From positions 1 through 52,740 of the IMG/VR virus record IMGVR_UViG_3300025127_000054: a stretch of 52,740 nt of DNA; one strand, given 5' to 3'. Position numbers and translations under genes: made by a program. Origin of the DNA: a virus. Lineage: Duplodnaviria; Caudoviricetes. Each line of letters opens with the position of its first letter. The stretch's first letter is position 1. Below are positions 1 through 21,252 of the stretch, in pieces. The notes beneath the pieces were generated by a model. It was not told where the DNA came from and ran no database searches. It saw only the letters and a program-made list of their open reading frames with translations.

Positions 1-203
1 GGCATGTCATAAGGACCGTCAAGTTTCTTTTTATATTCTCTCTCATCTAATACTTCATTAATAAGTTGTTTTAATTCAACCTTCAATGCATCTGATAAAA
101 GATTCATTTTATTCACCTGCATGGGTGAGATAGCAGCACGTTGTTCTTCTATAGATCTACCGCTACCACCTTTACCATACGACATACCCTGTGTGTTAAT
201 CAC
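1..203 (-). CDS. Hypothetical cyanophage protein, 3'-truncated by the window edge
   Basis: Read by hand: GTG ATT AAC ACA CAG GGT ATG TCG... = (M)INTQGMSYGKGGSGRSIEEQRAAISPMQVNKMNLLSDALKVELKQLINEVLDEREYKKKLDGPYDM, open to base 1. GGAGG lies 4 nt upstream of the GTG, which overlaps the end of the previous gene. Alternative ATG at 185. Confidence 0.75.
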   Translation of the reverse strand, partial: MINTQGMSYGKGGSGRSIEEQRAAISPMQVNKMNLLSDALKVELKQLINEVLDEREYKKKLDGPYDM

Positions 204-489
204 GTTGCCTCCAATCATCAGATCTACTATTTTTAAAGAAATCTGCTATATCTTCTGCACCTTGAAATCCTCTTTTAGATTTACGTGGATCACCTATATC
301 CAAATACTTAAGACAAGATCCGTCTTCATCTATTGATAATCTTCTTGCTTGACTTAACATACCTCTCGCTGATGTGTTTGCCTTTGATAATTTCTCTGCC
401 CATATCATATCATCTATTCCTACTTCTGTTCCTGCTGCAATTGATTTGCAGATTCCTTCTAACCGAAGGCGGTATTGTGTAGATAACAT
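196..489 (-). CDS. Conserved hypothetical cyanophage protein (97 aa)
   Basis: ORF track; MLSTQYRLRLEGICK...DMIWAEKL...DDWRQRD resembles a family I recall from T4-like cyanophages; co-oriented with the operon. Confidence 0.85.
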   Translation of the reverse strand: MLSTQYRLRLEGICKSIAAGTEVGIDDMIWAEKLSKANTSARGMLSQARRLSIDEDGSCLKYLDIGDPRKSKRGFQGAEDIADFFKNSRSDDWRQRD

Positions 490-522
490 TTACTAATATG
501 TTTGATAAGTTTGTACTATCTA

Positions 523-645
523 TTAACCTAACAAATACCTTTTTATTTTCCGTTCTGATTTCAAAAGAAATCTACTGATTCTTGTAAGAATTGGTACATT
601 TTTTCTTCTATAAACTGGTAGTATTTCTTTGAAACGATGTGTCAT
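523..645 (-). CDS. Small basic hypothetical protein (40 aa)
   Basis: Read by hand: MTHRFKEILPVYRRKNVPILTRISRFLLKSERKIKRYLLG*; its start overlaps the upstream stop as ATGA (642-645). Confidence 0.6.
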   Translation of the reverse strand: MTHRFKEILPVYRRKNVPILTRISRFLLKSERKIKRYLLG

Positions 646-3776: not shown

Positions 3777-4702
3777 TAGATTGTGTTATCAGTAATAGAT
3801 CCGACTGAACCAAATGGGTTTGCTTCAGTAAAGTCAATGATCTGATTGTCAAGAGTTTCAAAGTCATTGTTTTGATCGTACTCAGTATTAGCATTGTCGA
3901 TCGTATTATATGTAGCAGTTGTAAAGGATGCACCCGAAGTACCACCTGTCAAAGTTTCTGGTACTGTAAATGTTCCAGAACGATTAATAACAATAAGTGT
4001 TCTTGTAGAATTATCCCAAGATTTAACCTCAGCAGTTACGTTAGATGTACCCCCAGTGACAGTTTCACCAACGGTAAAGTCTCCAGTACCACCTGCAACA
4101 AGACCAACTGTAATAGCATTTGCAAAAGCAGTCTCGATAGCATCGAGTTCTGTAATACCTGTATTGATCTCTTCGTCGCTGTACTCGAATAGTTCACATT
4201 GACACTCCCAAACATAGTTTCTACCTAACTGATAGAAAGGTCTTTCTACTTCTACAAATTTTATTTCAAACAGATGTTTAGTTATAGGAAACCAAATTAA
4301 ATCCCCTTCGTTTGGTCTCCCTTCGACGTTAAGGACTGTAGAATCGTCCACGTTTTCTTTAAATTTTTCACGGGAGAATATAAAAGTTGTCTTGTCTTCA
4401 ATACGGATTCCAAATTTTGTAAGTAACTCACCTTGTCCTTCCCATCCTTCAACATTATTGACGTAAGCTCTGATAGGTTTCGCTGACTCAAATTTTCCAT
4501 CCGAATCTTCCTCAAAGATTGAATCTTGACTGACAATCGTTCTCGGAACATAGTAAATGTCTTGCCCATAAATCTCGATACTTTCTACAACTAAGTTTTC
4601 AATAAATTTTTGCTCCTGTGCAGAAGCATTTGCTTTCAATCTTCCTGCACTAGCATAGTTAGACTGAACGTAATCTTGAGCTGGTGAATTCTGTATTGCC
4701 AT
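3776..4702 (-). CDS. gp14: Neck protein (T4 gp14-like)
   Basis: EQKFIENLVVESIEIYGQDIYYVPR, RPNEGDLIWFP, FYQLG, CELFEYSDE and C-terminal DFTEANPFG motifs. Confidence 0.95.
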   Translation of the reverse strand: MAIQNSPAQDYVQSNYASAGRLKANASAQEQKFIENLVVESIEIYGQDIYYVPRTIVSQDSIFEEDSDGKFESAKPIRAYVNNVEGWEGQGELLTKFGIRIEDKTTFIFSREKFKENVDDSTVLNVEGRPNEGDLIWFPITKHLFEIKFVEVERPFYQLGRNYVWECQCELFEYSDEEINTGITELDAIETAFANAITVGLVAGGTGDFTVGETVTGGTSNVTAEVKSWDNSTRTLIVINRSGTFTVPETLTGGTSGASFTTATYNTIDNANTEYDQNNDFETLDNQIIDFTEANPFGSVGSITDNTI

Positions 4703-4703
4703 A

Positions 4704-5510
4704 TTAGCCTACAATATCCAATGGTGGTGTTTCATAACGATCACGAAGATCTTTTTCAAGATCTGCCTTGAATGTACTAGCATCTTCAAGGATTTGACGA
4801 CCATTAAGAGTCACCCCACCTAACATTTGAATACCATCATACTTGCTTAAGTTTCTACCCCATTGCTGTTGGAATAGTGCCTCAACATAATCCTTCAACC
4901 AGTTATCATTATACATGTCTGTATAGGTATCTGGATCTTGACGCATTGTCATGTCTACCATTATATAGTCTCCTACTGTGAGGTCGTCCCAGTCAAAGTC
5001 TAAGTAAAGTCTATTAGAATGTTCATTCCATTTAACTCTTCTATTTGCTTGAGAGTTAGTTACAAAGTCAAGAGTTTCTAAGTATTGAGATGTTAGGAAA
5101 TAGTGTAATATCTGTCCATGAGTCATGGAGTAGATATCATTTAAAAATATTTGATATTTAATATTGAAAATATTACCTGGTACTATACTTGATGCACCTA
5201 TGTTTGTATATACATGGTTAACACCTAAAGTACCTGGTGGTGTAGATACGTAATTATCTTGTCCATACCAAGGAGTTGATCCTTCTTGAGTAAATCCTTT
5301 TGCCTGTGTTTTGATAGCTTCAGTAACTTCAATTCTCATAAAGGTTTGAATACTACCATTGTAATGATATTCTTGGTAGTAATCTATTGCCTCTTCTATC
5401 AAATCATCTAGTTGTTCAGTCGCAACGTTAATATCTATCGTAGGATATCCTAATCTACGAAGAGCATAGTCTTTTAATTCTGTTTTACTTGCAGGTCTTG
5501 TAGCAGACAT
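4704..5510 (-). CDS. gp13: Neck protein (T4 gp13-like)
   Basis: ELKDYALRRLGYPTIDINV...QLDD, WLKDYVEAL..QQWGRNLSKY.G.QMLGGVTLNG motifs. Confidence 0.95.
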   Translation of the reverse strand: MSATRPASKTELKDYALRRLGYPTIDINVATEQLDDLIEEAIDYYQEYHYNGSIQTFMRIEVTEAIKTQAKGFTQEGSTPWYGQDNYVSTPPGTLGVNHVYTNIGASSIVPGNIFNIKYQIFLNDIYSMTHGQILHYFLTSQYLETLDFVTNSQANRRVKWNEHSNRLYLDFDWDDLTVGDYIMVDMTMRQDPDTYTDMYNDNWLKDYVEALFQQQWGRNLSKYDGIQMLGGVTLNGRQILEDASTFKADLEKDLRDRYETPPLDIVG

Positions 5511-5516
5511 AGTTTA

Positions 5517-8500
5517 TTAACCGAATGAACTGATAGTTAAGTTAGTTACATCATTAGCACCAACTGTTTCTCCTTTCTTAAAGAATCCAGATACATTATC
5601 AACTGTGACCGATGAGGAATCCATGGCTGTTATAACTCCCGAACTGTTGGAAGTTGTTCCAGTCAGTGTTGCTCCAATCTCCATAGTTGTGATGTCGGAT
5701 AGACTGAAGGTAGCATTAGTGAATACAGTTGCAACGTTAACAGTTGCGTTAGTAAAGATCGTAGCAATATCAATTGTTGCTCCATTTCCATGAATCTCTG
5801 ATACTGGGATTGTACATCCATTTCCATGAATTGCAGATACTGGAATCTGTGCTCCATTTCCATGAATCGCTGTGACATCAAAGGTAAGATCAGCACCACC
5901 GCCACCACCTAATTGAGCATCGGCAACTGTAACTGTCTCATTAACAATGAAACCTGATCCATCATCTGTGACAGTGATAGAATCAACAGTACCACCAACT
6001 CCAATAACAACGGTGAATGTTGCATTAGCACCTGATGCCTGAGTAGCATAATCAGATGTTCCTAAGGTATAAGTGCCAGGAGTTCTTGATGAATCAGTTG
6101 CACCAAAGTTTCCTACGGTCTTAATACCAGATGCATTAGCGTTAACAATAGTTATAACTTCGGATGCTGCATATCCAGATCCATCGTTATTAATTGTTGC
6201 ATCTGTTATAACTCCATTTGAAGTTGTAATATCAAGAGTCAATCCAGTTCCTGATCCAGATGATGTTGTAGCGATAGCAGTTCCGTTTGCGTATCCTGTA
6301 CCTGGATCGCTGAATGAACCAAGAGTCTTAACGCCACCTGAGTTAGCATTTACGATTGTAATAGTATCTGAAGCTGTATATCCAGATCCATCATCATTAA
6401 TTGCTACTGCTGTAATCGCACCAGAGGCATCTACAGATGATATGTCAACGGTAAAGTTTGAACCAGATCCATCATTGGTTGTTGCGATTGCAGTTCCAGT
6501 TGCGTATCCTGTTCCTGCAGTAGCGATAGATCCAAGTGTCTTAACACCAGATGCATTAGCATTTACGATTGTAATAGTATCATCAACTGCGTATCCAGAT
6601 CCTGCACCATTTATTGCTACACCTGTGACAACTCCATTTGAAGTTGTTAAGTTAAGTGTTAAACCAGATCCAGAACCAACAGTTGTTGTAGCAATAGCAG
6701 TTCCGTTTGCATATCCTGTACCACCTACAAGTGTGTCAACTGTTGCTGCACCACCTGCGTTAGGGTTCGTAATTGTGATTGTATCACCTGCAGCATATCC
6801 TGTTCCTACAGCATTAATAACAACGTTTGTTATTGCTCCGTTTCCATCGACTGTAGTATTGACTGTTAGGGCATCATCACCAGATCCAGAGTTTGTTGTA
6901 GCAACACCAGTTCCTGCTGAAAATCCACCAACACCACCAGATAATGTACCCAAGTTAAGAGTATCAACACCACCAAGATTGGAGTTAGGAATTGTTATTG
7001 TTTCTCCTATCACATAATCAGTTCCTGCTTGATTCAATGCAATTGCTGTAATAGCACCATCAGCATTTACTGTAGTATCAACTGTCAATCCAGTTCCTAA
7101 TGCAGATGCTGTTGTGGCAACGTTTGTCCCAGCTGTGTATCCACCAACACCATTTGATGATATTGATCCAAGAGTGACAACTGAACCAGGTGTAGGATCA
7201 CCAGATAGATTTAGTTTTAATGTAGTAGAAGTTGCAAGATTATTCAACATTGCTTTGAGTTGCTCAAACGCATGATCAAGTTTTGTTTGTACTCTTGCTT
7301 CTGTATGATATAGATTAGTTCCTTCTGCAAGGTTTGTAGTAGTCTTCTGACTTAGATCTAAGTTTGCACCAGTCGCAGCAGCAACTCTTGCATCTGCTCT
7401 AGTATCTGTAAAGAATACGTTTGTAGATCCTTCAGTTAGATTATCAGTATTGATATCTGACTGAGTTACAGCAAGTCCACCTGCACCATCATGCTCAATA
7501 CCTGTACCATATGTAAAGTGTCCTCTGGTTCTTGCAGCAGTAGTGTATAGATTATTAAGTCCTTCAGATAAAGCATCAGTATCATGATTATTAATATTCG
7601 CTGCTTGAGTTGCAGTTCCAGTTAAATTACCTGTAATAGTAGTGATGGCAGCAGCGTCAGCAAAAACGTTCATGTACTTTTTAGTACTAGAACCTAGACT
7701 GTATACTCCATTTGTATCAGGAATTATATTAGCTGATTCAGTTGTATTTGCTACAAGATTACCTGTGACATTACCGACCAAATTACCTGTAGTAGTACCA
7801 ATAGAAGCAGCATCAGCAAAAATATTTTGCCATTTTAAGGTAGAAGAACCTAAATCATATGTTGAATTTAAAGCAGGATCTATATCCTTAGCTTGAGTTG
7901 TTGCAGCTTCAAGATTACCAGTAAGATTACCAACTACATTACCTGTGACAGTACCAATAGAAGCAGCGTCAGCAAAAATATCTTGCCATTTTAAGGAACT
8001 AGAACCTAAGTCGTATGTTGAATTTAAAGCAGGTTTAATATCTTTAGCTTCAGTTGTAGCTGCTAAAAGATTACCTGTAAGATTACCAACTACATTACCT
8101 GTAGTAGTAGCAATAGCAGCAGCATCAGCGTAAATATTTTGCCATTTTAAGGTAGAAGAACCTAAATCGTATGTTGAATTTGTATCGGGTTTAATATCTT
8201 TAGCTAAAGTGGTAGCTGCTACAAGATTACCTGTGACATTACCAGTCAAATTACCTGTAATAGCATCAATATTTCCTGCATCAGCATGAATATTTGCCCA
8301 TTGTTTAGTGCTAGAACCTAAATCGTACGATGAATTTAAAGTAGGAACTATATTTTTGGATTCAGTTGTAGTTGCTACAAGATTACCCGTTACATTACCG
8401 ACCAAATTACCTGTGGTGGTGGCGATTGCAGCAGCATCAGCATGAATATTTGCCCATTTTAAGGTAGAAGAACCTAAATCGTACGATGAATTTAAAGCAG

Positions 8501-11500
8501 GTTTAATATCTTTAGCTTCAGTTGTAGCTGCTACAAGATTACCAGTAAGATTTCCTATTACATTACCTGTAGTAGTACCAATAGAGGCAGCATCAGCATG
8601 GATATTTGCCCATTTTAAGGAACTAGAACCTAAATCGTATGTTGAATTTATAGCAGGATCTATATCTTTAGCTTGAGTGGTAGCTGCTACAAGATTACCT
8701 GTTACATTACCAATTAAATTACCTGTGGTAGTAGTAATGGTAGCAGCATCAGCATGGATATTTGCCCATTTTGCAGAACTAGAACCTAAATCATATGTTG
8801 AATTTGTTTCAGGTTTAATATCTTTAGCTAAAGTGGTAGATTTTATAAGATTACCTGAGAAAGAAGTAGCAGTAATTACGTTAGAAGCAAAATTACCAGA
8901 TGCATCACGTAAGACTAAGTTGTTTGCAGCGTTTGTACTTGCAGATGCTACGTTGATTGTAGTATTACCAGATACACCATCAGCATTTGTTAGTGTAATA
9001 CCAGAAGATGCTGTGACTTGGAACGTACGATGAGCATAACTATTCGCACCATCTCTGACCATATATCCTGTACCAGTCTGTGCAGCAAGTGCAGTTATAT
9101 CTGCATCATTAAATGTAACTGTAAGTGTTGGATCAGAAGCACCATTGATTGATACTGAACCATCTACTACACCATCAATAGTAAGTGTTCTTGCAGTCTT
9201 CCATGCATCAGCAGTTGATGCGTTTCCTAAGAATCCTGCAGCAGCACCAGTTCCAGTTGCAGCAGTGATTTGTCCTGCAGAGAAATTACCAGATGATCTA
9301 GTTACAACACTATTACCAGTTGTGTCTGTAGCACTTGTAGTTAATCCATCAAGGAAATCTGCGTTAAGATTATTGACTTTAGTTGAAGATGCAACTACGA
9401 ATGGTGCAACACCCTGAGCAAGTTGAGAAATTATCTGACCATCAACTGTTGCTGTACCATCAACATTTAAGTTATTATCAATATCAACAGATGTACCTGC
9501 ACCAGTGACATTTAAAGAACCAATTCTTAATGCAGCATCAGTTCCTGAGAAAACTTCACTACTATTAGTAGCAGTAGTTAAGAAAGTAAATTCTTGAGTT
9601 GATCTATCAAATCCAAAGAAACCAAGTTTAGCAGATCCATCAAAATATCTAAATTCAATACCCCTATCTTTACCATCGTTTGATGCAGGAGCAGTATCAC
9701 CACCTAGAGTAAATACAGGATCATCTATAGTGACCGTTGTTGAGTTAACTGTAGAAGTTGTACCATTAACTGTAAGATTACCTGTGACAATTAAGTTAGA
9801 CTGGGCATTAACATCTCCAGCTACAGTTAAATCACCTTGTGATACTGTATTACCATTGTCGGTATCTATCGTAAACTTATCAACAGCACCAGCTGTTTGT
9901 ACTTTGAAGAACTTATTATCTGCCTTAACAATTAATTGGTTCTCAACGATTGTTGAACCTGATATATTTGCACTACTATTAAGATCAAGAGCACCTGATA
10001 ATTCAGTTCCACCATAAACCCTAAGCCCGCCACCAACTGCTAAGTTTTTACCAATACCTGCACCACCAGTAAGTCTTACAGCACCATCAGCAGCATATGT
10101 TCCTGTAAGAGTTTGTTCTGTATTATTTGTAAATGTATTGACACCAGATGTTTGGAATGTATCGTTAATCTGAGTTCCATCATTAACAGTTAAGGTACCG
10201 ATAATAGTTGTATTACCGTTATCAGTATCAACTTGAAACTTAGTTGTCTGGGCAGCATTTCTAACTTCAAAAATTTCGTTATCACCTGCAACAAGTAAAG
10301 AATCGTTGATAGATGTTTGACCTGCAACAGTTAAAGAACCAGATATATTAGTTGATCCATCAGCTGATGAAACAGTAAATTTATTAGTTGTACCTGTTCT
10401 AACTGCAAAGTTTGCATCTACATTCATTGCACTGTTAAATTCAGATGCACCTGTGACAGTTAATTGTCCACCAATAGTTGTATTACTATCGACATTAAGT
10501 GTTGAATTTAATTCAGTATGACCATCAGCAGTCAGCGTACCTTCAATATTAGTATTACCAGTTACGTTATCGACAAAGAACTTATCAGTCGTTCCGTTTC
10601 TAACTGCGAAATCAGCATCAATATCAGTAACACCATTAATATTAACTGTACCTTCAATTACTGTATTACCATTATCTGTATCTACTGTAAACTTATCAAC
10701 TGCAGATCCATTTTGAATCTTAAAGTTTTCATTTGATGCATTGATAGTGACAGAATCTTGAATAGTTGTATTACCTTCGACATTCAAAGTACCTTGAATA
10801 TCTGTATCACCAGTTGCACCAATAACACTAAACTTCTCTGTATCACCACTGTTTAATTTACCAACTGAGAACTTCTCTCCTGACGCTGTAGCACCAACGT
10901 ACAAGGATTTCATAATACCTGCACCACCATGTGCTTTTATAGTGGAGAAGTTATGAGAAGCATAAGAAGGAGATGCTTGATAAGTGTCACCAAAACGACC
11001 TCTGTATCTAACTCTCAACCAGTTCAATCTAGATTCAGTTTCTGTTGCACTATCCTTAACTTCAATAGGACCATTAACATGCAACGTACCATCAATCAGA
11101 CCAGATCCTGCTACATAGAAACCACCATCAAGTCTAAGTGCACCATAATCACTTGATTGAATCTCCCAAGCACCAGTAGTTCCGTTCTTGGCAGTAGTAA
11201 TATCGTTTGTGCTTTCTAAATGAATATCACCTGATATAGCAGCATCAGCGTTAGCATCTATATTACCAGTGACTGTGAGGATACCACCTACATCAACATT
11301 ACCTGTAGTGGTATGAAGTGTAGTTTTAGTAGTTCCTGATCCGTTTTTAAGTTCTAAGGTCTTAGAAGCACCTTGGAATACAATATTATCATCAAATCTA
11401 CTTGTAGAATTAGCACGGAATGTACCATCTACATCTAATAATCCACCAATATTAACATCATCTCCAATACCTGCACCACCTGCAACCACCAAATCTCCAG

Positions 11501-13490
11501 TAGTATTAGATGTTGAGTTTGTATTTGTTGTAAGTTTTAAGTTACCTGCAGTTATACCTGACGCTGTTCCACTAAAGACCTCTGAAGTATTTGTGGCGTT
11601 GTGTAAAAATGTGAATCCTCCGACGTGTCCTCCGAGGTCGGTGTATGAGTCATCATATCCAAAGAAACCAACTCTTGCTTGATTATCGTAATATCTGAAC
11701 TCAACACCACGATCTTTATTGTCATCACTAGCAGGAGCAGTATCGCCACCAAGAGTAATGATGGGATCATCCACTGTTGTAACTGTTGAATTAACTGTCG
11801 TCGTCGTACCATCTACTTGTAAATCTCCGTGAACTCGTACTAATCCAGTGATTGCTCTATCATCACCTGGATCAAGATGCATTGTAGCATTTGAAGTTGC
11901 AATATAGTTGTCTTGGAATCTTGCATCTTCAACATGAACTTTACCAGTAGCAGCAGATGCATCGATGTCAACAACATCTTCTGCAGTAAGAGTTAATGTA
12001 CTTGTGCCAGATCCTGCGTTAGTAGAAGCAATAGTAAAGTTTCTAGCAGAAGAACTATTCTGTGAAAGTTCAATATTAAGAATACCATCACCAGATTTAA
12101 CAATCTGTTGTGCTGTAGCACCATCAAGAATGAAATCAGGATCACTGAATAAAGTCTTTACATTAATATCTACTTCACCGTTGCCACTATCACCTGTGTT
12201 ATTAGCAGCAAATAATAAACCACCTGAGGTATTCTTTACATTTACATAATTTATTCCAGTAAATCCTCTGTATCCTGTTGTTGTGGTGAGTTCTTGATCT
12301 AATTCAAAATGCTCAACAGAATTACCATCAGCAAAAGATACTCTATTGTTTTGTAATTGTGTATTGTCTATACCTGCAGCAGCAACAGTTACATGACCAC
12401 CTGCAGTTACGTCAAAGTCTTCTTGGGCAAAGGATGCCAATCCTTTCTGTTCTGTGCTTTCGGCAGCGAGATATCTCCACCCGCCAGTGTCACCGCTACT
12501 ATGAGTAGGAGCACCTGCACCTGCAGAAATAGATTGTAATGCTTGATAAACTTTTGAAGCATTCTTAATAATATCATACCTAACGTATGAAGTCGCTGCA
12601 TTATAATCTAGGGCAGTTGTACCTTCTACAGCTGTAGCGATAGGTACATTAGTTGCAGATGTTAATCTACCACGGTCATCTACAGTGAACTTAGTAGCAT
12701 TAACTGTCTGTGTACCAAAGGGTTCTGAACTAGAACCAACAGCATTTACAGATGTCAGGGATTCCGTATTATAGTTACCTGGTACTACAGCAGTTGCAAC
12801 AATATCTATTGTTGGGTTTCCAGAAACACCATTACCATTAACTATAGAAATTCTTGTAGCAGTACCAGTAATAGTTCTGGTTGCCATATTTCCACCACTG
12901 GTTCTTGATATAATACCAGTAGTAGTAAGTCCTGATATTGCAACCAAGTCAAGGTCATATGGTTGAGCAGAAGAACCTTCTACAGTTCCGTTTAAATTAT
13001 AATCAGCAAGTGTTGATGGGAAAGAAGCGTTTGTTATTCTACCTTTTGCATCTACTACAACTTTTGTGTATGTACCAGATGAATTACCAGTACCATCATA
13101 ATGAGGTAGTGTTGGTAGAAGTTCTAATGAAGCAACAAGGTTTAAGTTTGTAGATCCGTCAAAGTTTCCTGTAGCAGTAACGTCTGAGGAAAGTTGAATC
13201 TGTCTAGTTGAAGCAAGTCTAGCAGCAGTTGATGAATTACCAATTATAGTCGCAGTTATAGTACCTGCAGCAAAATTACCATCTGCATCTCTTTGTACAA
13301 GAGTATTTGCAGTGTTTGAAGTTGATTCTACTGGGCGTTCATATCTCAGAGTGTTCCATGCAGATACACCATCACCGATTTTAAATCGACCTGTATCTAA
13401 CTCAATACCCAATTCACCTTGAGCAAGAGTAGGGTTTGCGTTTGCCCATTCCTGAGCACCACCCCTTCTTAATTGTAATCTATTTGCCAT
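5517..13490 (-). CDS. Long tail fibre / receptor-binding protein (2657 aa) with an Mtd_N-like N-terminus and several repeat classes
   Basis: N-terminal QLRRG...W..ANPTLAQGELGIELDTGRFKIGDG..AWNTL (major-tropism-determinant N-terminal-like); G/T/A/N-rich shaft repeats; lies just upstream of gp13 with its own late promoter. Confidence 0.9.
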   Translation of the reverse strand: MANRLQLRRGGAQEWANANPTLAQGELGIELDTGRFKIGDGVSAWNTLRYERPVESTSNTANTLVQRDADGNFAAGTITATIIGNSSTAARLASTRQIQLSSDVTATGNFDGSTNLNLVASLELLPTLPHYDGTGNSSGTYTKVVVDAKGRITNASFPSTLADYNLNGTVEGSSAQPYDLDLVAISGLTTTGIISRTSGGNMATRTITGTATRISIVNGNGVSGNPTIDIVATAVVPGNYNTESLTSVNAVGSSSEPFGTQTVNATKFTVDDRGRLTSATNVPIATAVEGTTALDYNAATSYVRYDIIKNASKVYQALQSISAGAGAPTHSSGDTGGWRYLAAESTEQKGLASFAQEDFDVTAGGHVTVAAAGIDNTQLQNNRVSFADGNSVEHFELDQELTTTTGYRGFTGINYVNVKNTSGGLLFAANNTGDSGNGEVDINVKTLFSDPDFILDGATAQQIVKSGDGILNIELSQNSSSARNFTIASTNAGSGTSTLTLTAEDVVDIDASAATGKVHVEDARFQDNYIATSNATMHLDPGDDRAITGLVRVHGDLQVDGTTTTVNSTVTTVDDPIITLGGDTAPASDDNKDRGVEFRYYDNQARVGFFGYDDSYTDLGGHVGGFTFLHNATNTSEVFSGTASGITAGNLKLTTNTNSTSNTTGDLVVAGGAGIGDDVNIGGLLDVDGTFRANSTSRFDDNIVFQGASKTLELKNGSGTTKTTLHTTTGNVDVGGILTVTGNIDANADAAISGDIHLESTNDITTAKNGTTGAWEIQSSDYGALRLDGGFYVAGSGLIDGTLHVNGPIEVKDSATETESRLNWLRVRYRGRFGDTYQASPSYASHNFSTIKAHGGAGIMKSLYVGATASGEKFSVGKLNSGDTEKFSVIGATGDTDIQGTLNVEGNTTIQDSVTINASNENFKIQNGSAVDKFTVDTDNGNTVIEGTVNINGVTDIDADFAVRNGTTDKFFVDNVTGNTNIEGTLTADGHTELNSTLNVDSNTTIGGQLTVTGASEFNSAMNVDANFAVRTGTTNKFTVSSADGSTNISGSLTVAGQTSINDSLLVAGDNEIFEVRNAAQTTKFQVDTDNGNTTIIGTLTVNDGTQINDTFQTSGVNTFTNNTEQTLTGTYAADGAVRLTGGAGIGKNLAVGGGLRVYGGTELSGALDLNSSANISGSTIVENQLIVKADNKFFKVQTAGAVDKFTIDTDNGNTVSQGDLTVAGDVNAQSNLIVTGNLTVNGTTSTVNSTTVTIDDPVFTLGGDTAPASNDGKDRGIEFRYFDGSAKLGFFGFDRSTQEFTFLTTATNSSEVFSGTDAALRIGSLNVTGAGTSVDIDNNLNVDGTATVDGQIISQLAQGVAPFVVASSTKVNNLNADFLDGLTTSATDTTGNSVVTRSSGNFSAGQITAATGTGAAAGFLGNASTADAWKTARTLTIDGVVDGSVSINGASDPTLTVTFNDADITALAAQTGTGYMVRDGANSYAHRTFQVTASSGITLTNADGVSGNTTINVASASTNAANNLVLRDASGNFASNVITATSFSGNLIKSTTLAKDIKPETNSTYDLGSSSAKWANIHADAATITTTTGNLIGNVTGNLVAATTQAKDIDPAINSTYDLGSSSLKWANIHADAASIGTTTGNVIGNLTGNLVAATTEAKDIKPALNSSYDLGSSTLKWANIHADAAAIATTTGNLVGNVTGNLVATTTESKNIVPTLNSSYDLGSSTKQWANIHADAGNIDAITGNLTGNVTGNLVAATTLAKDIKPDTNSTYDLGSSTLKWQNIYADAAAIATTTGNVVGNLTGNLLAATTEAKDIKPALNSTYDLGSSSLKWQDIFADAASIGTVTGNVVGNLTGNLEAATTQAKDIDPALNSTYDLGSSTLKWQNIFADAASIGTTTGNLVGNVTGNLVANTTESANIIPDTNGVYSLGSSTKKYMNVFADAAAITTITGNLTGTATQAANINNHDTDALSEGLNNLYTTAARTRGHFTYGTGIEHDGAGGLAVTQSDINTDNLTEGSTNVFFTDTRADARVAAATGANLDLSQKTTTNLAEGTNLYHTEARVQTKLDHAFEQLKAMLNNLATSTTLKLNLSGDPTPGSVVTLGSISSNGVGGYTAGTNVATTASALGTGLTVDTTVNADGAITAIALNQAGTDYVIGETITIPNSNLGGVDTLNLGTLSGGVGGFSAGTGVATTNSGSGDDALTVNTTVDGNGAITNVVINAVGTGYAAGDTITITNPNAGGAATVDTLVGGTGYANGTAIATTTVGSGSGLTLNLTTSNGVVTGVAINGAGSGYAVDDTITIVNANASGVKTLGSIATAGTGYATGTAIATTNDGSGSNFTVDISSVDASGAITAVAINDDGSGYTASDTITIVNANSGGVKTLGSFSDPGTGYANGTAIATTSSGSGTGLTLDITTSNGVITDATINNDGSGYAASEVITIVNANASGIKTVGNFGATDSSRTPGTYTLGTSDYATQASGANATFTVVIGVGGTVDSITVTDDGSGFIVNETVTVADAQLGGGGGADLTFDVTAIHGNGAQIPVSAIHGNGCTIPVSEIHGNGATIDIATIFTNATVNVATVFTNATFSLSDITTMEIGATLTGTTSNSSGVITAMDSSSVTVDNVSGFFKKGETVGANDVTNLTISSFG
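5690..7185 (-). repeat. Six nested ~70-85-aa beta-domain repeats (five openers, one complete core, five stacked closers) at the fibre tip
   Basis: Units of the form GTGYANGTAIATT...G.GY...TITIVNAN; closers HGNGxxIxxxxI x3 and FTNATxxxxxx x2. The identical 15-mer TCCATTTCCATGAAT occurs at 5781, 5817 and 5853. Confidence 0.85.
7618..8856 (-). repeat. Eight tandem 156-nt (52-aa) coding repeats
   Basis: GAACCTA anchor at 7690, 7846, 8002, 8158, 8314, 8470, 8626, 8782 (period exactly 156). Consensus AKDIKPALNSTYDLGSSTLKW(A/Q)NI(H/F)ADAAxIxTTTGN(L/V)VGN(V/L)TGNLVAATT. Confidence 0.95.
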
Positions 13491-13786: not shown

Positions 13787-14008
13787 TTAATTGTTAGCTA
13801 ACTTTAGTAGTAGAGATTTGATCTCACTCATATCAGATTTTAGCAGAGAAACATCATTTTGTAAAGTCTCAAATTGTTGTTTCTTAACTTGTTCAGCCTT
13901 ACGAGCAGCCATATACTTTTTATAAGTATCTTGATCTGCACATGAAAGAGATCCAGTTGATGAATCTCTAAACCATCTTTCGGCATCTTGTACGGGAATT
14001 TGGCTCAT
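13787..14008 (-). CDS. Small coiled-coil hypothetical protein (73 aa)
   Basis: ORF track; RD..TG...Y..Y...LKSDMSEIKSLL pattern, which I recall following the VrlC-like gene in T4-like marine phages; ATGA overlap. Confidence 0.85.
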   Translation of the reverse strand: MSQIPVQDAERWFRDSSTGSLSCADQDTYKKYMAARKAEQVKKQQFETLQNDVSLLKSDMSEIKSLLLKLANN

Positions 14009-17000
14009 ACTGCAAGTGCTATTGCTCTAAAGTCTTTGATGATAGGTGAGTATGCCTGATTAGGTGATACGAATATAACTTTAATTTGATACTGGTCAAA
14101 ACTTAGTCCAGATACCTCATATTCATATTCATAAAATACTTCTCTTTCCGACGTTGCAGGTATTTTAGCACCTGTTGTTGGGAAAAATTCATAACCTAAT
14201 TGTTGTATTGGATCTGTTGATCCAACTGGACGTACTCTATATAGCACCTTAATCTCACTGCCTGTTGGACGGTATCCACTGAAGTATATTTTAATAGATC
14301 CAGAGGCATTTACAAGGTTTGCAACACGAGTAATATACACAGCATCATGTTCATCACCAACAGATAGTTTAGCAGTATTACTATTGGTTGGTTTATTGAT
14401 TCTATTTGATACACATGTAATTGACATTCTATCAGTATCAATGACTGGTGATAGAGTTGTCACTCCACTGGTCATTGTAAGATCCATTCTGAATGACTTA
14501 GCACCACTAAGTTCAGATGATTCATTGATACCTGAGCATATTAGAGAAGGTGCCAATAAAGGATTATCTTCACTTAATATTATATCGCTGAATACACCAT
14601 CATTAGAGAATGATGATTCTAGAACTTGATTACCATCATTGATTGATGTACCACTGATAGTATTAATTCTTGCAGCAAGACCAGTTTTAGGAAGTAACAT
14701 TCTTTCAATCTGAGGTACTAAGATCTCATATTGAATATTTTGTGTTGCGACTGTATTAATTCCACCACCCACAATACCAAGTCTAGCAATAGAACTGGTT
14801 GTGATTTCATAACTGTCAAGAGTTGGATTCATAATACCAGTATGTGTCTTGTTGATTTCTGTTAAAGGAATACCATCAAGGTTATAACATTCAATAACTG
14901 TTTCGTCAGCATGAGATCTTCCAGTTGTACCGTTTAATCCCCTCTCATGAACAGTTATTGTTTTACCATCAGTACTGATTGCACTGTAGGATACAATTTC
15001 AGCAAATGTAGCAGCAAGACCTTGAGTAGAATTCCAAATTCTAGCATAGCCAGGATTACTTGCACTTATTGCTGCACCATTAATAATCTTATGGAATGCA
15101 GTTGCATCATTAACAGAGACCGATGTATCACTAGCAGATATAGATGCAGTCAAGTAAGTTGGTGATACTTCTGATTCTACATTTTCTACAGTAACATTAT
15201 TCAACGGATCATGCATACCATGATTACTATGGAATATTTTTACTTTTCTTTGAGTTGTAGCATATGTTGGTGTTGCATCAGGGAAAGCAGGTTGTATAGC
15301 ACCACTTGATACTGCGTCTCCTGCAGGAACAAAGTTAGTTCCTGAACTAGGAAGTGTTGTTTGCTGACTTGCAGTACCACCACCTGCACCATCTCCTGTA
15401 ATAGTCTCACTATTTGAGAATGCTTTAGAAGCATAGTTTATAGCAAGAGTTGTGCTGTTTGTGACAGCAGTGATAGTAGCAGTAGCACCTGATGTGCCTC
15501 CTGTAATTACGTCTCCGATTGCATAACCAGATGTAGCAGCAACAGTTAATGTAGCAGTTGTTTTAGATGAAACAATGCCATTTGTAGTAGAAGAACCTTG
15601 TACGAATGTTCCTGTAATATCTTTGATAGTTAACTGTACACCCTGTGTAGTATCGACAAACGAAGCAATTGTACCTTGTGCTAATGATGTCTTCTGATAG
15701 ATACGAGCACCTATTGTATAAGGAGTAGTTGCAATCTGTGAGTTCATATTCAATACAATTTCTGGTACGAATGTTTGAATAGGATCTCTTCTTAATAAGA
15801 GTTTACCACCATTACCTTCTTCAAGTGAAATGTTATTTAAAACTAATTTACTACTTGCAGTATTGTTAAAGTCTGCTCTATAGATTGCAAATTTAAGATC
15901 TTCATACTGGTCTGCAGTCCATGTAGATGCGTTCTGTGATTTGAATAGAACACCTGCATATGGTTGCTCAGATATAGTTCTGTCACCAGTAATATCAATT
16001 TCACCCATTCTTGATATCCAAATCTTATATGAGTTAGAGTCAGATAAAAGAACGAAACAATGTTCAATTGACTGTGGGATGTAAACTGGTGCTCTAAATG
16101 TAAATTTAGTTGCAACAGCACCTGTCTCAGATATCTGAATATCTGCAGGTTCTTTAGTGACATCAGAGAATGGTAGAATACTTGTTGTTGGATATCCATT
16201 TTCCATTGTTCTAATTTGCATAGAAACAGGAATGTTTGTATCCTTAGTATTAAAGTAAACATCTACAGATGTTATGAATACTCCACCAGTTTCATCACTA
16301 ATGAATGACTGTGCAAGAGGGTCATACCAACCGATTTGTCTTGTCTCAGTTCTAGTAGAACGAACTGTTCTATCTTGAGTAACTGTATCACGAACAACTT
16401 CAGCGTTTCTAACAGCAAGAACATTTTCACGGACTCTATTAAGAGTTCCTTTTGCTTCGTATTCTACTTCAGCAGATGAATCTACTGCTCCTGCTAATCT
16501 TGAATCTTCTTGAGAAGTGGTCAATCTCATTGTTCTTGTACCAGTTCTCCATCTTGGATTACCAGGTACATTTGTTGGAGGAATAAAGAATGAACCTCTT
16601 AACTTACCAAAACGGTCAGATACTAATCTACGATCTTTAATAACTGCTTTAGCACCAGATGTTCCGATAATAACTTCACCAACTTGGAAATTACCAAAGA
16701 ATTGTCCAGTTGCTTGGTTTGCACTTGCTGCTAAATCTATGTTTAGAATTGCAGTTGTAGATGCATAAGATGAAGGTAATACACTATCATCATATGGATT
16801 GTATGCAAATGTTGCATTAGGTGTTGCTACTCTGAATCTAGCACCAGATGTTTGACCTATAACTGTCTCACCAATAACAAAAGGTGTTGAGTTTGTACGA
16901 TTATCTGTTGATGGATCTTTAATAAGTTCAACGACTTTAGGAGTAATGTATTCATCAATTGATCTTCCATCGAAGAAAGCATATACTCTTGTTCTTGGTT

Positions 17001-20000
17001 TTAGTCTTTCAACTACAAACTTAACGTTTCTAGATCTAATCCAAGGAATAACTGTGGTTGAAACAATACTATCTCCTAATGATCTACGATCTATTCTAGG
17101 TATAACTCTTGATCTTACACCTGTTCTTGTTTGTCCAGTTGTAACTTCAATATCAGTTATTCTATTAACACGACGCATACCACGACCACCCCAAACATCA
17201 GGTCTTGGTGATCTACCGATATCCTCTTCTAACCATCCAGAGTTTCTTTGAACTCTTGAACCAATAACTCTTTCAGTTGTCCACTGATCTCTCCACGCAC
17301 CCCATTGGATAGGAGCAAAACCATTTTGATCAAGATTCATTTCAGATGATACCGCTTGGAAATCACCTTCTACTTGTGTTACTTGAACTGGAAGTCTCTG
17401 TGTATCTAACCAGTCATCAGATGCAGGAGTTAAATCAATACGTCCAATGTAAGTAAATACGTTGAATGGGTTGATGTTCTCAACTCTAGAAGCATATGGT
17501 TGATCAATAATCTTTAGTTCTGTATATGGCAGAGTAATTAGAGGACCAGTTGCTTGGAAATTAGTTGATAGTGAATTATTAATCTCAAGACCTATGTTTG
17601 TAGTGTAGTGAGATGCTCTAGCATAACCTTGTTTGAAATCTAATGCAGCACTAAAGTCTTCGTTTTGTGTGTCTGACTTACCGTGATCTGAAAAATCATC
17701 TACAATAAAACCATTCTTAAGACGGTCTTTGCCATCTGCGTCTATAATCTTGGTATTATAAGTATCAGTCTCTAATAAGTTTAACGAAGTATAGTATTCT
17801 ACTTGATCTAATCTACGTTCTATACCACCGATATCACGCATGGTATAACGTTTGTTATCAGATCTCACTATCGCAACATCTGCTTCAGGATCAAAACCAT
17901 ATGGTTTATGATTTATGACTGCTAAGAGCATACCATCTTTTAAATCATCTGGTTCTAAAGGTCTTTCAGCAGATTTACCTTTGATAATTTGGAACTCACC
18001 ATCAGGAGATATGAATGCTTTGTCAGTTCTTGGTAGATACCAATCAAAATCACAACGCATACTTGTATTGATTTTAGGAACGTCAAAGACTGTAGCAGTA
18101 GGAGTACCACTTACATTGAATAATCTTGAATTAAAATCAAATGTAGATGCTTGAACATATGCAGGTGATGCAACTGTTCCAGTTCCAGTATATAAATTCC
18201 TAACACCTGGTCTAAAGTCCAGATAATCTGCCATAAATTTGACACCAAAGAACGGAATATCACTATAATCTGTAGAAAGATATGACTGACCTCCAAAGTA
18301 ATCGCCAGTCGCAGAGTGTGTGTAGTAATCAATAACTACTTTTAATTTTCTAAGAGGAACTGCAACACCTTTCTTTCTTACAATCTTAGAAATATCGTAT
18401 ATAAATCCAGTTTGATTTACTTCAAGGAAGTAGTTATCAGTAACAACTTTAGATCCTGCAATAATTGATCCTGCAGAGTCATTGATAATAGCACTAATAG
18501 CAATACCACTGCTATTAACACCATTGATAGTTTCACCTGCAACAAATACTCCTTCAAGATATACTAATGATAGTGTCAAACTACCTGAAGCAAAGTCAAT
18601 AACTTTTGCTCTTGCCTTAGAAGTTGCACCTGTTACAATAGTACCAGTAGCAAAGAATGTTGGTTCTACAATAGTGACAGAAGGTAATACTGGATCTGCA
18701 TCATCAAATGATTCATATACAGCATGTAATCTATAACAGTCTGATACACCTAAAGATATTTCTCTATCTTCAATACGTGTACCAAATAAGTTAGAGTAAG
18801 TTAAATTATAATTTTGCTTGTCTAAATTTTGTATAGTCTTATTAACCTTCATAACAAACATCTGATTTTCAGTCTTTGTTTTTCTGGTTGCTATATTCTT
18901 AGATATTGTAGCAGTAACTTTTACAGATGTAATTGATGTTAAGTTTTCAACCTGTAAAGTAGTTTGTTCAGATGATGTAAAGGTTGTATAACCAATAGTA
19001 CCAGATGATGATGTGTTTAGAGGTATCTCAGCACCTACAGCATAAGAACTGTTTGATCCTGCTAATACAACTATAGTATAGTTTTCATTTGTAATAGAAG
19101 CAAACTGTTCATTTTCTGGAAGAGTAATTGATATAGAGTTAGAAGATACTGTTTGTGCATCAAATGTTCTTCTGACAGTCATAGATTCATCAGAAATTGA
19201 TTTGATATACTTCTTAGGCATTGGACTAAGAAGATCTGCATTTTCTACTTCAAATAGTTTTGCACGGTATCTTAATAATGCAGTATATGTACCTGCAGAA
19301 GGAGCAGCAGTAGGATCTACTTTGACTGTTTGTCCTGTAGCTGATGTATAATCAAATATAGATGATATACCTGTTGTAGGTAATGCATTAGGATCTACCT
19401 TATCTACATCAACATATTGTGTATTATTGAAATATAATCTATCGCCAGGTCTTAAATCTAAAGCAAAGTTTGATTGTAAACCAGTAATTTTTTCTGCACT
19501 ACCTGTAGCATCATATGTAAATGTACTACCTTGTACAACTGCAACATCTTCAAGAATAATATCAGCACTAAACTCTACAGCAGATGTGCTTTCATCTCTT
19601 GCTACAAGTTGTCTTGCATCAGAGAAGTTATAATAGTGAATATTATTAACTGTATCTAAATTTAATCCATCAACAGTTATCATTTCACCTGCTTGGAACT
19701 GACCTTCAACTTGATACAAGTCAATATGATCAGCAGAGAATGTTTCTGTGACGTATCCTCTTGCACCAGATGTAGCACCAACAACTTGAGAACCTGCAGT
19801 TACACTAACTGAAGCTGCCATATCCAAAATGGTAAACATTTGAATATCAAACAATACTGTCTTATAAACATCATCTGCATCACCAAATGTTGCGTCTAAA
19901 TTTTGAGAATATTCACACGATAATATACGAGCATAACCTATAATATTACCTGCACCTGTACCTGGTGAACTTGTAAATGCATCTCTTATCTGAGCAACTT

Positions 20001-21252
20001 GATATGCATTAGCTAATGAAGAACCTGTAGCATTAGGAAATCCATATATGTTGTTTACATTTACAAAGTTTCCAACCTCAAAAGGTATATTTACATTCTG
20101 TGCAGACTGTGTATCTCTTGGTTTTTCTAAGTCAACATATGTTGGAGATAAAGTAGAAACTCTATATCCTTTTACATATGCAGTACCAGGACCAAACTCA
20201 ACTGCATACATGTTTTCTGCAGTGGTATTACCTTGAGATGTTGTAGAACCTACAGCATAAACACCATTATTAAATGTATTATCTAAGTTCTCTCTAATAT
20301 TAATGTCAAAATCTTTTACAACGTAATCACCAGATTCCTCAAAGGTTCTGGTTGCCATTGTTTTTTCTAATTCACTATATGCACTACGATCTACTAACTG
20401 TTCTACTTTAGAGTTATTGATACGTAATAGTTCAATAAAGTCTTTATCAGCATCATCTGTAAGAAGTTTCTTAACTAAATTTGTGGTGATTCTAAATCTA
20501 TGAGAACCAGGAGCAGCATAGTTAGATGTTCCTGCAGCATTATCGTTGAGGCTAAGGTCATCTTCTGGGGTGATGATTGACTCTTGAATATCAAGTCCGA
20601 TACGATAGGAGGGGTTGGTTCCATACTGATCTAATAGAATGTATTGATAAGGTACATCAACAAAGAAACCTCTAATAAAGTAAACACCATCTTGAACATA
20701 TGCAACAGAACCAGTCTGTAATGCACCTGTAGGTAATAACTGTGCAAATGGTGATCCAACTTCAATCAAAGTTGTACCGAAAGTTATTTCAGTATCAGTA
20801 ATTAACTGTTCATTGTTGGAAAATGATTGTTGTGTATTTCCTGTACCACCTGATTCAATATACTTAACATATAATGTGATATAACCTTTTGTAGATACGG
20901 TATCAGAAATACTATATAATACTTTTGCTTTGACTCCTGATGTCAAACCAGTAATAATTTTATCTGTAAGTTGAGATCTATACAATTCAACGTCAGCACC
21001 CAAGAAAGACTCTTGAACTAAGATACAGTCAACGTTTAAGTCATAACCAACTTGACCTGGTATAACCATTGCACCATCTTTGAATAGATGTGCACCAACG
21101 TTTTCAACCTGATTCTGCAAGATACTTTGCATCGAAGTAAGTTCTCTTGCCTGTATTGGAAAACCAGGACGGAACAGTACTCGATAAAAGTTCTTCGTTT
21201 TATCAAAGTCGTCGTAATACGGTGTTACGTTTAAATTAGTATTTTGTGCCAT
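14005..21252 (-). CDS. Large virion structural protein, VrlC/DUF4815-like (2415 aa)
   Basis: N-terminal NLNVTPYYDDFD..KNFYRVLFRPGFPIQARELT..Q, RYTMRDIG.IERRL...EYYTSL, DPLAQSF, LFKSQNASTWT and C-terminal DFRAIALA motifs. Confidence 0.9.
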   Translation of the reverse strand: MAQNTNLNVTPYYDDFDKTKNFYRVLFRPGFPIQARELTSMQSILQNQVENVGAHLFKDGAMVIPGQVGYDLNVDCILVQESFLGADVELYRSQLTDKIITGLTSGVKAKVLYSISDTVSTKGYITLYVKYIESGGTGNTQQSFSNNEQLITDTEITFGTTLIEVGSPFAQLLPTGALQTGSVAYVQDGVYFIRGFFVDVPYQYILLDQYGTNPSYRIGLDIQESIITPEDDLSLNDNAAGTSNYAAPGSHRFRITTNLVKKLLTDDADKDFIELLRINNSKVEQLVDRSAYSELEKTMATRTFEESGDYVVKDFDINIRENLDNTFNNGVYAVGSTTSQGNTTAENMYAVEFGPGTAYVKGYRVSTLSPTYVDLEKPRDTQSAQNVNIPFEVGNFVNVNNIYGFPNATGSSLANAYQVAQIRDAFTSSPGTGAGNIIGYARILSCEYSQNLDATFGDADDVYKTVLFDIQMFTILDMAASVSVTAGSQVVGATSGARGYVTETFSADHIDLYQVEGQFQAGEMITVDGLNLDTVNNIHYYNFSDARQLVARDESTSAVEFSADIILEDVAVVQGSTFTYDATGSAEKITGLQSNFALDLRPGDRLYFNNTQYVDVDKVDPNALPTTGISSIFDYTSATGQTVKVDPTAAPSAGTYTALLRYRAKLFEVENADLLSPMPKKYIKSISDESMTVRRTFDAQTVSSNSISITLPENEQFASITNENYTIVVLAGSNSSYAVGAEIPLNTSSSGTIGYTTFTSSEQTTLQVENLTSITSVKVTATISKNIATRKTKTENQMFVMKVNKTIQNLDKQNYNLTYSNLFGTRIEDREISLGVSDCYRLHAVYESFDDADPVLPSVTIVEPTFFATGTIVTGATSKARAKVIDFASGSLTLSLVYLEGVFVAGETINGVNSSGIAISAIINDSAGSIIAGSKVVTDNYFLEVNQTGFIYDISKIVRKKGVAVPLRKLKVVIDYYTHSATGDYFGGQSYLSTDYSDIPFFGVKFMADYLDFRPGVRNLYTGTGTVASPAYVQASTFDFNSRLFNVSGTPTATVFDVPKINTSMRCDFDWYLPRTDKAFISPDGEFQIIKGKSAERPLEPDDLKDGMLLAVINHKPYGFDPEADVAIVRSDNKRYTMRDIGGIERRLDQVEYYTSLNLLETDTYNTKIIDADGKDRLKNGFIVDDFSDHGKSDTQNEDFSAALDFKQGYARASHYTTNIGLEINNSLSTNFQATGPLITLPYTELKIIDQPYASRVENINPFNVFTYIGRIDLTPASDDWLDTQRLPVQVTQVEGDFQAVSSEMNLDQNGFAPIQWGAWRDQWTTERVIGSRVQRNSGWLEEDIGRSPRPDVWGGRGMRRVNRITDIEVTTGQTRTGVRSRVIPRIDRRSLGDSIVSTTVIPWIRSRNVKFVVERLKPRTRVYAFFDGRSIDEYITPKVVELIKDPSTDNRTNSTPFVIGETVIGQTSGARFRVATPNATFAYNPYDDSVLPSSYASTTAILNIDLAASANQATGQFFGNFQVGEVIIGTSGAKAVIKDRRLVSDRFGKLRGSFFIPPTNVPGNPRWRTGTRTMRLTTSQEDSRLAGAVDSSAEVEYEAKGTLNRVRENVLAVRNAEVVRDTVTQDRTVRSTRTETRQIGWYDPLAQSFISDETGGVFITSVDVYFNTKDTNIPVSMQIRTMENGYPTTSILPFSDVTKEPADIQISETGAVATKFTFRAPVYIPQSIEHCFVLLSDSNSYKIWISRMGEIDITGDRTISEQPYAGVLFKSQNASTWTADQYEDLKFAIYRADFNNTASSKLVLNNISLEEGNGGKLLLRRDPIQTFVPEIVLNMNSQIATTPYTIGARIYQKTSLAQGTIASFVDTTQGVQLTIKDITGTFVQGSSTTNGIVSSKTTATLTVAATSGYAIGDVITGGTSGATATITAVTNSTTLAINYASKAFSNSETITGDGAGGGTASQQTTLPSSGTNFVPAGDAVSSGAIQPAFPDATPTYATTQRKVKIFHSNHGMHDPLNNVTVENVESEVSPTYLTASISASDTSVSVNDATAFHKIINGAAISASNPGYARIWNSTQGLAATFAEIVSYSAISTDGKTITVHERGLNGTTGRSHADETVIECYNLDGIPLTEINKTHTGIMNPTLDSYEITTSSIARLGIVGGGINTVATQNIQYEILVPQIERMLLPKTGLAARINTISGTSINDGNQVLESSFSNDGVFSDIILSEDNPLLAPSLICSGINESSELSGAKSFRMDLTMTSGVTTLSPVIDTDRMSITCVSNRINKPTNSNTAKLSVGDEHDAVYITRVANLVNASGSIKIYFSGYRPTGSEIKVLYRVRPVGSTDPIQQLGYEFFPTTGAKIPATSEREVFYEYEYEVSGLSFDQYQIKVIFVSPNQAYSPIIKDFRAIALAV

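Follow-up and report, generated by a model that had tools for sequence, protein, structure and literature searches.

Domains nested one inside another are known from the sheath proteins of bacteriophage tails. In published passages on T4 gp18, domain I is described as inserted in domain II, domain II in domain III and domain III between the ends that form domain IV (PMC3004832), and 'Russian doll' is a term that has been applied to sheath proteins (PMC6088184, likewise in a published passage). The nested domains of sheath proteins have different folds, run to at most about four levels and are fixed in number. Here we describe a stack of a different kind at the C-terminal end of a putative fibre protein of 2657 amino acids (aa) that is encoded by the IMG/VR virus record IMGVR_UViG_3300025127_000054 (Duplodnaviria; Caudoviricetes), the 52,740 nucleotides (nt) of which are referred to below as the window. 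Unlike in the sheath proteins, the same barrel would be inserted in itself up to seven times, the number varies among close relatives and the stack is located at the end of a fibre or in a baseplate loop. On the strength of structure models, we consider it likely that the C-terminal ~500 residues form a rod of six small six-stranded β-barrels built by recursive domain insertion, with the closing strands returning in last-in-first-out order.

In the donor-strand complementation of chaperone–usher pili, each incomplete β fold receives its missing strand from the subunit that follows, in forward order, whereas in the fibre stack the strand would come from the same chain and the order would be reversed. 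In the tip of T4 gp37, the chain runs to a distal head and back, with the C-terminus returning towards the shaft, and forms an intertwined trimeric needle with histidine-bound iron. The iron-binding needle is described in published passages on that tip (PMC6957217); the fibre stack shows no similarity to gp37 in fold searches and is modelled as nested monomeric barrels, with no needle. The periscope proteins of bacterial surfaces, as portrayed in the passages cited, project a functional domain on a rod of small β domains, the number of which differs from strain to strain (PMC8201768). Like them, the fibre stack has a repeat number that varies among close relatives (n = 1–7 levels). Periscope stalks, however, are single-pass tandem repeats that change in length by one slippage event, whereas the fibre models show an out-and-back chain, two gaps separate relatives whose depth differs by one level, slippage at one site leaves the tail unmatched (P0008, discussed below) and DNA identity between repeats is only 61–81%.

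Insertion of one domain in another, stalks that vary in length and fibre tips with a returning chain are all known separately. In the open-access literature, we found no description of one domain recursively inserted in itself to a variable, bookkept depth, and neither 'nested' nor 'cyanophage' occurs in the RBPseg fibre atlas paper. The published passages on P-SSM4 orf087 and S-TIM4 ORF108, two orthologues introduced below, contain neither a nested architecture nor coupled counts. On balance, we favour the view that the stack is an undescribed repeat-protein topology, in which a domain sits within itself to a depth of 0–7 with one opener and one closer per level, and that it acts as a portable 'telescopic' cassette for the loops of virion proteins.

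The gene is the minus-strand open reading frame (ORF) 5517..13490, and the region that a preliminary description of this sequence had likened to a Russian doll lies in frame at its C-terminus. The full 2657-aa protein matches PHROG 697, 'structural protein', with E = 0 and 3074.7 bits. Judging from sequence, it is a virion fibre or structural protein, a member of the PHROG 697/T4-GC 402 group of cyanomyovirus giant structural proteins and the orthologue of P-SSM4 PSSM4_087 (orf087) and S-TIM4 ORF108. We refer to its last 594 residues, about the final fifth, as the tail, and tail residue numbers refer to these. Parts of the tail were delimited by automated segmentation, and strands were assigned with DSSP (Define Secondary Structure of Proteins) on an AlphaFold2 model of the window tail.

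The tail comprises five openers of ~70 aa, one complete tip domain, five closers of 11–12 aa and a 57-aa C-terminal domain, so that the five open units, the complete sixth and the exactly five short strands of the preliminary description were each recovered where it had placed them. All lie on the minus strand. The lead-in (7194..7301; tail 1–36), which is nearly invariant across 55 tails, has a predicted helix at 2–24 (DSSP) followed by the linker TLKLNLSGDP. Opener 1 (6969..7193; tail 37–111, 75 aa), modelled as a five-stranded open barrel, ends PNSNLGG and is predicted to pair with closer 5. Opener 2 (6750..6968; tail 112–184, 73 aa) ends TNPNAGG and would pair with closer 4; opener 3 (6546..6749; tail 185–252, 68 aa) is of the '..TVDTLVGGTGY' type, ends VNANASG and would pair with closer 3; opener 4 (6333..6545; tail 253–323, 71 aa) ends VNANSGG, with closer 2 as its predicted partner; and opener 5 (6126..6332; tail 324–392, 69 aa) ends VNANASG and would pair with closer 1. 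The tip domain, of type A (5865..6125; tail 393–479, 87 aa), ends ...ADAQLGGGGGADLTFDVTAI and has its own closing strand LTFDVTAI; it is divergent yet complete, and DSSP assigns it five strands, then a short helix and, at 472–479, a sixth strand.

The closers follow without interruption. Closer 1 (HGNGAQIPVSAI; 5829..5864; tail 480–491) has a strand at 483–491, predicted at a local distance difference test score (pLDDT) of about 90, and shares its sequence type with the strand by which type-B tips close themselves (GGGGD-ATIPVSAI). Closer 2 (HGNGCTIPVSEI; 5793..5828; tail 492–503) has its strand at 496–503, closer 3 (HGNGATIDIATI; 5757..5792; tail 504–515) at 509–515, closer 4 (FTNATVNVATV; 5724..5756; tail 516–526) at 519–526 and closer 5 (FTNATFSLSDI; 5691..5723; tail 527–537) at 530–537. 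Two opener classes, arranged 2 + 3, face closer classes arranged 3 + 2, the pattern that had been described beforehand. The C-terminal domain (5520..5690; tail 538–594; TTMEIGATLTG...GFFKKGETV...SSFG) is nearly invariant across tails.

In the proposed architecture, the chain would lay down five strands of barrel 1 and exit via an Asn/Gly linker (N-x-N-x-x-G) into barrel 2, and this opening would be repeated over five levels before one complete barrel forms the tip. The return chain would then give one 8-residue strand to each open barrel after a short HGNG or F-x-N-A turn, the last barrel opened being the first closed. Because the return path runs in reverse order, the end of the chain would adjoin the start of the stack, where the 57-aa domain would sit, and with its ends adjacent the whole stack could be dropped into a loop of another protein. 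It would follow from this topology that the chain passes twice through each junction between barrels and that folding proceeds from the tip inwards to the base.

Two AlphaFold2 models bear on this architecture: model 1 is of the window tail (n = 5), predicted with an alignment (A1) of 55 distinct tails with the window first, and model 2 is of a natural n = 2 tail (L061), predicted with an alignment (A2) of 77 tails. Mean pLDDT in model 1 is 81.6, with values of about 90 over residues 40–537 and below 50 only at 25–38, within and just after the lead-in, and at 538–594, the C-terminal domain; in model 2 it is ~90 across the stack and below 50 at the equivalents of these two segments. DSSP assigns five strands to every opener of model 1 and one strand to each of the five short segments, and in both models openers are five-stranded and self-closed units six-stranded.

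An all-against-all structural aligner gave the first and last aligned model residue for each row, with ~75 residues aligned per row. Of 50 rows for model 1, 46 begin in opener k and finish in closer 6−k: 28 rows run from opener 1 to closer 5 (~32–40 to ~535–546), four from opener 2 to closer 4 (110–128 to 525), eight from opener 3 to closer 3 (183–198 to 513–515), three from opener 4 to closer 2 (254/255 to 503/504) and three from opener 5 to closer 1 (319..492, 321..490 and 325..492). The others are one row for the tip only (399..477), one inside opener 4 (254..319), one borderline case (269..507) and one that is mispaired (52..525), with a poor root-mean-square deviation (rmsd) of 5.9. For model 2, opener k is joined to closer 3−k in 41 of 50 rows (opener 1 with closer 2 in 12, opener 2 with closer 1 in 29), seven rows lie in the tip, two lie inside opener 2 and none is mispaired. 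Since the end points fall at mirror elements with ~75 residues aligned, both models can be described as last-in-first-out nests of six-stranded barrels, and in both the outer domain is predicted to be discontinuous, with both ends of the inner domain leaving from one of its loops.

The structure prediction that the preliminary description had proposed as a check therefore joined openers to their mirror closers in two models. The out-and-back chain that it envisaged, with one return strand for each domain in reverse order and the complete unit at the far end, agrees with the models, with the counts and with the mirrored gaps described below. Its suggestion that the stack is inserted in a terminal barrel is not shown by the models, in both of which the flanks on either side of the stack are the segments with pLDDT below 50.

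Phage fibres are generally trimeric, and the closing strands might instead be donated between chains, each return strand completing a barrel of its neighbour by domain swapping so that three stacks interlock. Equal counts and mirror order would look identical in such a trimer, and the lead-in helix and C-terminal domain are of low confidence or unmodelled in the monomers, as expected if they need partners. The monomer models, however, close all of the barrels within one chain at pLDDT of about 90, the same cassette occurs in the different context of a baseplate-protein loop and self-closed single units in a sheath protein argue for a one-chain barrel fold, and we regard exchange between chains as improbable. 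Prediction with three copies of the L061 n = 2 tail (residues 12–344, A2) gave an interaction prediction score from aligned errors (ipSAE) of 0.02 against a mark of 0.42, without controls, and has no bearing on oligomeric state.

Openers and closers were counted in two sets of relatives. The first drew on IMG/VR loci (80 and 78), a protein search and one isolate; the 182 records with both flanking anchors reduced to 106 distinct tails, in 105 of which openers equal closers (eight tails at n = 1, 24 at n = 2, 27 at n = 3, 17 at n = 4, 23 at n = 5, two at n = 6 and four at n = 7). A metagenome set of 80 loci, 71 with both anchors, yielded 65 distinct tails of which 43 were new. Counts are equal in all 43, 39 having been counted automatically and four pattern misses (closers starting HA.., T.. 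or R..) settled by eye. Combined, the counts are equal in 148 of 149 distinct natural tails from n = 1 to n = 7, which comes close to the invariable equality that the preliminary description had expected of homologous fibres. Tail length grows by 82 aa per level. Among isolates, openers and closers number 5/5 in P-SSM4, 3/3 in P-RSM4, 2/2 in P-SSM7, 1/1 in S-ShM2, 1/1 in S-SSM5 and 3/3 in S-TIM4, and P0048 represents the n = 0 form, a single self-closed unit followed by the C-terminal domain.

It could be argued that these tails arose by plain tandem-repeat expansion with no structural coupling, and that the equal counts reflect shared ancestry or a counting artefact: many of the tails are close relatives, and the number of closers was derived as length divided by 11.8. 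We find this scarcely credible, as equality holds over seven values of n, two tip types and two host proteins, the lone unequal case has the form of a one-unit slippage product that is 99% identical to matched relatives and an independent count by eye agrees for 13 representatives.

Independently of the AlphaFold2 models, the mirror order is also apparent in the types of opener and closer. A second F-type closer, next to last, is found exactly where opener 2 ends N.NAGG and is followed by a '..TVDTLVGG' opener; this holds at n = 4, 5, 6 and 7, and both states are seen at n = 4. The '..TVDTLVGGTGY'-type opener and the 'D.A'-type closer are gained and lost together. Within tails, the matrix of opener–opener identities correlates with the reversed closer–closer matrix (r 0.51–0.96), and 31 of the 32 tails with n of at least 4 fit the reversed order better than the forward one; the exception, L030, has a symmetric class pattern.

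In alignments of relatives that are one level apart, two gaps appear, in which an opener and the mirror-position closer are missing. L047 (n = 4), for example, is 86% identical to L021 (n = 5) and lacks opener 3 and the segment ATVDIATIFAN, and five further pairs behave likewise. As non-central levels differ by such paired gaps, two events would be needed, with an unmatched intermediate such as P0008. At the centre of the stack, the window tail (n = 5, tip A) and L030 and L033 (n = 4, tip B) are 86% identical and differ essentially by the tip-A domain: where tip A is missing, unit 5 closes directly with a strand of its own, and the type-B tip is opener 5 so closed. The earlier claim that a change of length requires paired changes at two separate sites consequently stands for non-central levels and falls for a central insertion or deletion, or for insertion of a whole cassette. 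Depth could therefore change in one step, by insertion or deletion of the innermost domain or the whole cassette, or in two compensating steps, in which an opener and the mirror-position closer change separately and selection clears unmatched forms. That an inner module can be dispensed with while the outer one is left undisrupted is seen in the n = 0–7 series, in the presence and absence of tip A and in the states of the baseplate loop described below. In nature, depth runs from 0 to 7 levels of about 82 aa each, with two alternative tip domains (A and B).

Self-closed units end ...ITITGGGGD-ATIPVSAI and closers read HGNG-ATIPVSAI, a likeness that points to homology between the closers and the genuine final strand of self-closed units. 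It bears on a further alternative, that the 70-aa units are complete in themselves and that the 12-mers run back along the stack as a β structure of their own (a ladder, solenoid or trimeric needle), with counts equal through a match of lengths. The regular 12-residue period and the conserved His or aromatic residue at repeat starts would suit such a structure, periodicity of this kind being reminiscent of fibre needle repeats, and the evidence for strand insertion all comes from prediction. Against this, the models give openers five strands and self-closed units six, the identical strand directly follows a Gly loop in self-closed relatives, opener types travel with specific closer types from n = 4 to n = 7 and into another protein, and alignments to single-barrel templates get to ~75 residues only by taking in the distant strand. 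We therefore judge a separate 12-mer structure to be very unlikely.

We considered, but did not adopt, a metal-binding role for the HGNG histidines: outer closers have Phe, Trp, Tyr, Ala, Thr or Arg at this place, and the position would fit a packing residue better than a metal ligand.

A number of points weigh against recursive insertion as the architecture of the stack. Nesting is seen in predicted models only; strand pairing was inferred from alignment end points and DSSP rather than from coordinate contacts; and both models are monomeric, although trimers are the usual state of fibres. The mirrored arrangement of classes and the matrix correlation could partly reflect conserved ends and a variable middle, and the sequences are related by descent, so that independent events are few. 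One tail, P0008, is the sole exception among the 149, with three openers and four closers. Apart from an in-register 67-aa deletion, which removes exactly one opener between two 'NAAG(T/S)GY' motifs, it shares 99% identity with n = 4 relatives whose counts match (in comparison with L085); either true slippage or a collapse in assembly would account for it. The remaining points concern the fold. A profile of 17 complete units found nothing significant in Pfam or in PDB sequences, which places the unit outside any sequence family, and the structural matches are modest, with Z below 6 throughout, at which level (below Z of 8) a likeness can be a mere common arrangement.

These matches are headed in both models by T4 gp18 domain I, to which the fibre unit comes closest in structure, and by a Klebsiella phage sheath. 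The best rows of model 1 (opener 4, 254/255..503/504) reach Z 5.4–5.7 with rmsd 2.7–3.0 over 74–75 residues and 24–27% identity, and the sheath matches of model 2 reach Z 4.3–4.7; the next best are EF-Tu-type domain 2/3 barrels at Z of about 4. According to published passages, gp18 domain I (about residues 98–188) is a six-stranded barrel plus a helix, itself an insertion domain and the innermost of the nested domains of gp18 (PMC3004832). The corresponding Pfam family, PF22639 (Gp18_dom_I), scored E = 0.46 and 10.9 bits against a cut-off of 27, and it is absent among the Pfam families found for the 17 complete units. Pfam searches with the tail and with the complete units gave nothing above cut-offs, phmmer with the tail found nothing significant in PDB sequences and Foldseek with the whole 594-residue model gave no PDB match at E ≤ 0.001. 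A metagenomic sheath protein, P0055 (PF04984, PF17482), has two self-closed units at ~100–270 and matches the tail with E = 1.8e-14; in this protein a putative gp18 domain I-like barrel is found as a surface insertion domain of a sheath protein.

The DNA of the tail is repetitive far beyond chance. A repeat finder returned families of ~210-nt units at 61–78% identity and three 36-nt units at 72–81%. A 15-mer noted beforehand occurs exactly at 5781, 5817 and 5853 and a 26-mer exactly at 6343 and 6556, the latter being the longest exact repeat of the region and coding for the conserved DTITIVNAN motif. The recent amplification that had been read into these identities fails on comparison between lineages: openers 1–3 of the window share 73–90% identity with their positional equivalents in L021 and L023, lineages only ~72–75% identical overall, against 40–68% with their own paralogues. 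Because same-position identity exceeds paralogue identity, the outer levels would predate those lineages.

The same module is found in a second protein, in a loop of the giant gp8-adjacent DUF4815 baseplate protein of S-CAM22 and ACG-2014g, as a clean insertion of ~235 aa. This cassette consists of a 'TVDTLVGG'-type opener, a standard opener, a type-A tip and the closers HGNGC... and HGNGAT.D.A.V; its outermost opener and last closer are of the types paired as opener 3 and closer 3 in the fibre. The window orthologue (14005..21252, minus strand, 2415 aa, DUF4815) aligns on either side and lacks about 235 residues, the empty site lying at about residue 583 (TFTYDATGSAE|KITGLQSNF). Across IMG/VR, the same site is empty (L176–L180, L183), holds n = 1 (L174) or holds n = 2 (L166–L173), and is always matched.

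The stack is likely to serve as a doubly linked rod of adjustable length, on which a distal domain that probably contacts the host is presented away from the fibre or baseplate. If the telescopic-cassette reading is true, the cassette would set how far the host-contacting domain is held out at the fibre end or the baseplate, and unmatched intermediates would be transient and biased to spare closers, as in P0008. Repeat proteins are usually seen as head-to-tail arrays that grow and shrink by slippage, and a self-nested array would depart from that: its length would change only through matched events, it would fold from the far end inwards and it should be a stiffer rod than beads on a string because the chain crosses each joint twice. 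The compliance of 148 of 149 variants would then offer a natural, sequence-readable case of selection policing structural bookkeeping, and a rigid spacer that can be inserted in loops and tuned in length might be of use as a module in protein engineering.

The gene is among the largest structural genes in the T4-like cyanophages of Prochlorococcus and Synechococcus, and its S-TIM4 orthologue is a hotspot of host adaptation. According to published passages, every experimentally evolved population had mutations in S-TIM4 ORF108, and far more sites were changed in populations adapted to sub-optimal hosts (PMC6224464); intragenic recombination between repeats of the gene, over a 120-bp tract, is also reported (Enav et al., PMC6224464). 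In S-TIM4 ORF108 the stack spans gene nt 5506–6537 (residues 1836–2179). A search of the reference gene for exact repeats of at least 25 nt, made to place the 120-bp tract relative to the stack, found none. Level number and tip type differ among isolates grown on different hosts.

Within the window tail, identity is 95.1% to the Prochlorococcus phages P-SSM4 and P-RSM3 and 94.3% to P-SSM3, with 56% over the tail for S-TIM4 ORF108, and all 251 phage records that match the tail are Synechococcus or Prochlorococcus phages. P-SSM4 PSSM4_087 is also 2657 aa in length and lies directly before the neck gene gp13; in published passages orf087 appears among putative tail-fibre genes and is credited with complex repeats (PMC1079782). 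The gene is found directly upstream of the neck genes gp13 and gp14, and the same order is annotated in P-SSM4, P-RSM4, P-SSM7, S-ShM2, S-SSM5 and S-TIM4. In the window, the fibre gene is followed by ORFs of 268 aa and 308 aa, the second of which (3776–4702) matches PF11649, T4_neck-protein, with E = 6.2e-35.

The only Pfam match of the 2657-aa protein is Mtd_N at its N-terminus (residues 6–43); no YadA family (head, stalk or anchor) was detected by Pfam at E up to 1, and weak matches to Hia_Tpr_ring_dom were seen in 4 of 17 tip units (best E = 0.013). The orthologues in P-SSM4, P-RSM4, P-SSM7, S-ShM2, S-SSM5 and S-TIM4 carry the GenBank name 'YadA domain-containing structural protein', for which the window protein gives no Pfam YadA support, and the same gene is named 'head protein' in P-SSM3 and 'outer membrane protein' in S-SSM2.

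The C-terminus (60 aa) has no Pfam match, and an ESM Atlas search with the C-terminal domain returned unnamed viral clusters only. Its motif (G.T.TG.TS..G.I...V.V..V.GFFK.GE) resembles a repeated motif of DUF4815 baseplate proteins (L082/L083), such as G.SSGATGLVV...VNGSFQDGE, and may denote a small domain that the two share.

Self-closed relatives of the units also occur outside fibres: the variable region of a flagellin (P0047) contains a tandem pair of tip-A-like complete domains, and tandem tip-related domains are present in P0050. P0052, a protein with a Por-secretion tail, has half-units of 40 aa, and P0063 has two separate single insertions.

Unit-like domains may be present too in the giant gp7-region protein of the window, the 7310-aa minus-strand ORF 28420–50352, which shows weak similarity to fibre openers 3–4 at 41881–42204 and 48853–49305 (35% and 29% identity, E 3.5e-6 and 3.4e-5). 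In the fibre protein itself, the shaft that precedes the stack (window ~7400–8800, ORF residues ~1560–2000) contains, as read from the translation, about ten repeats of ~45 aa with the consensus ..KDI.P..NS.YDLGSS..KW.NI.ADA..I...TGN..GN.TGNL.A.TT.A, and other classes of repeat lie nearer the N-terminus.

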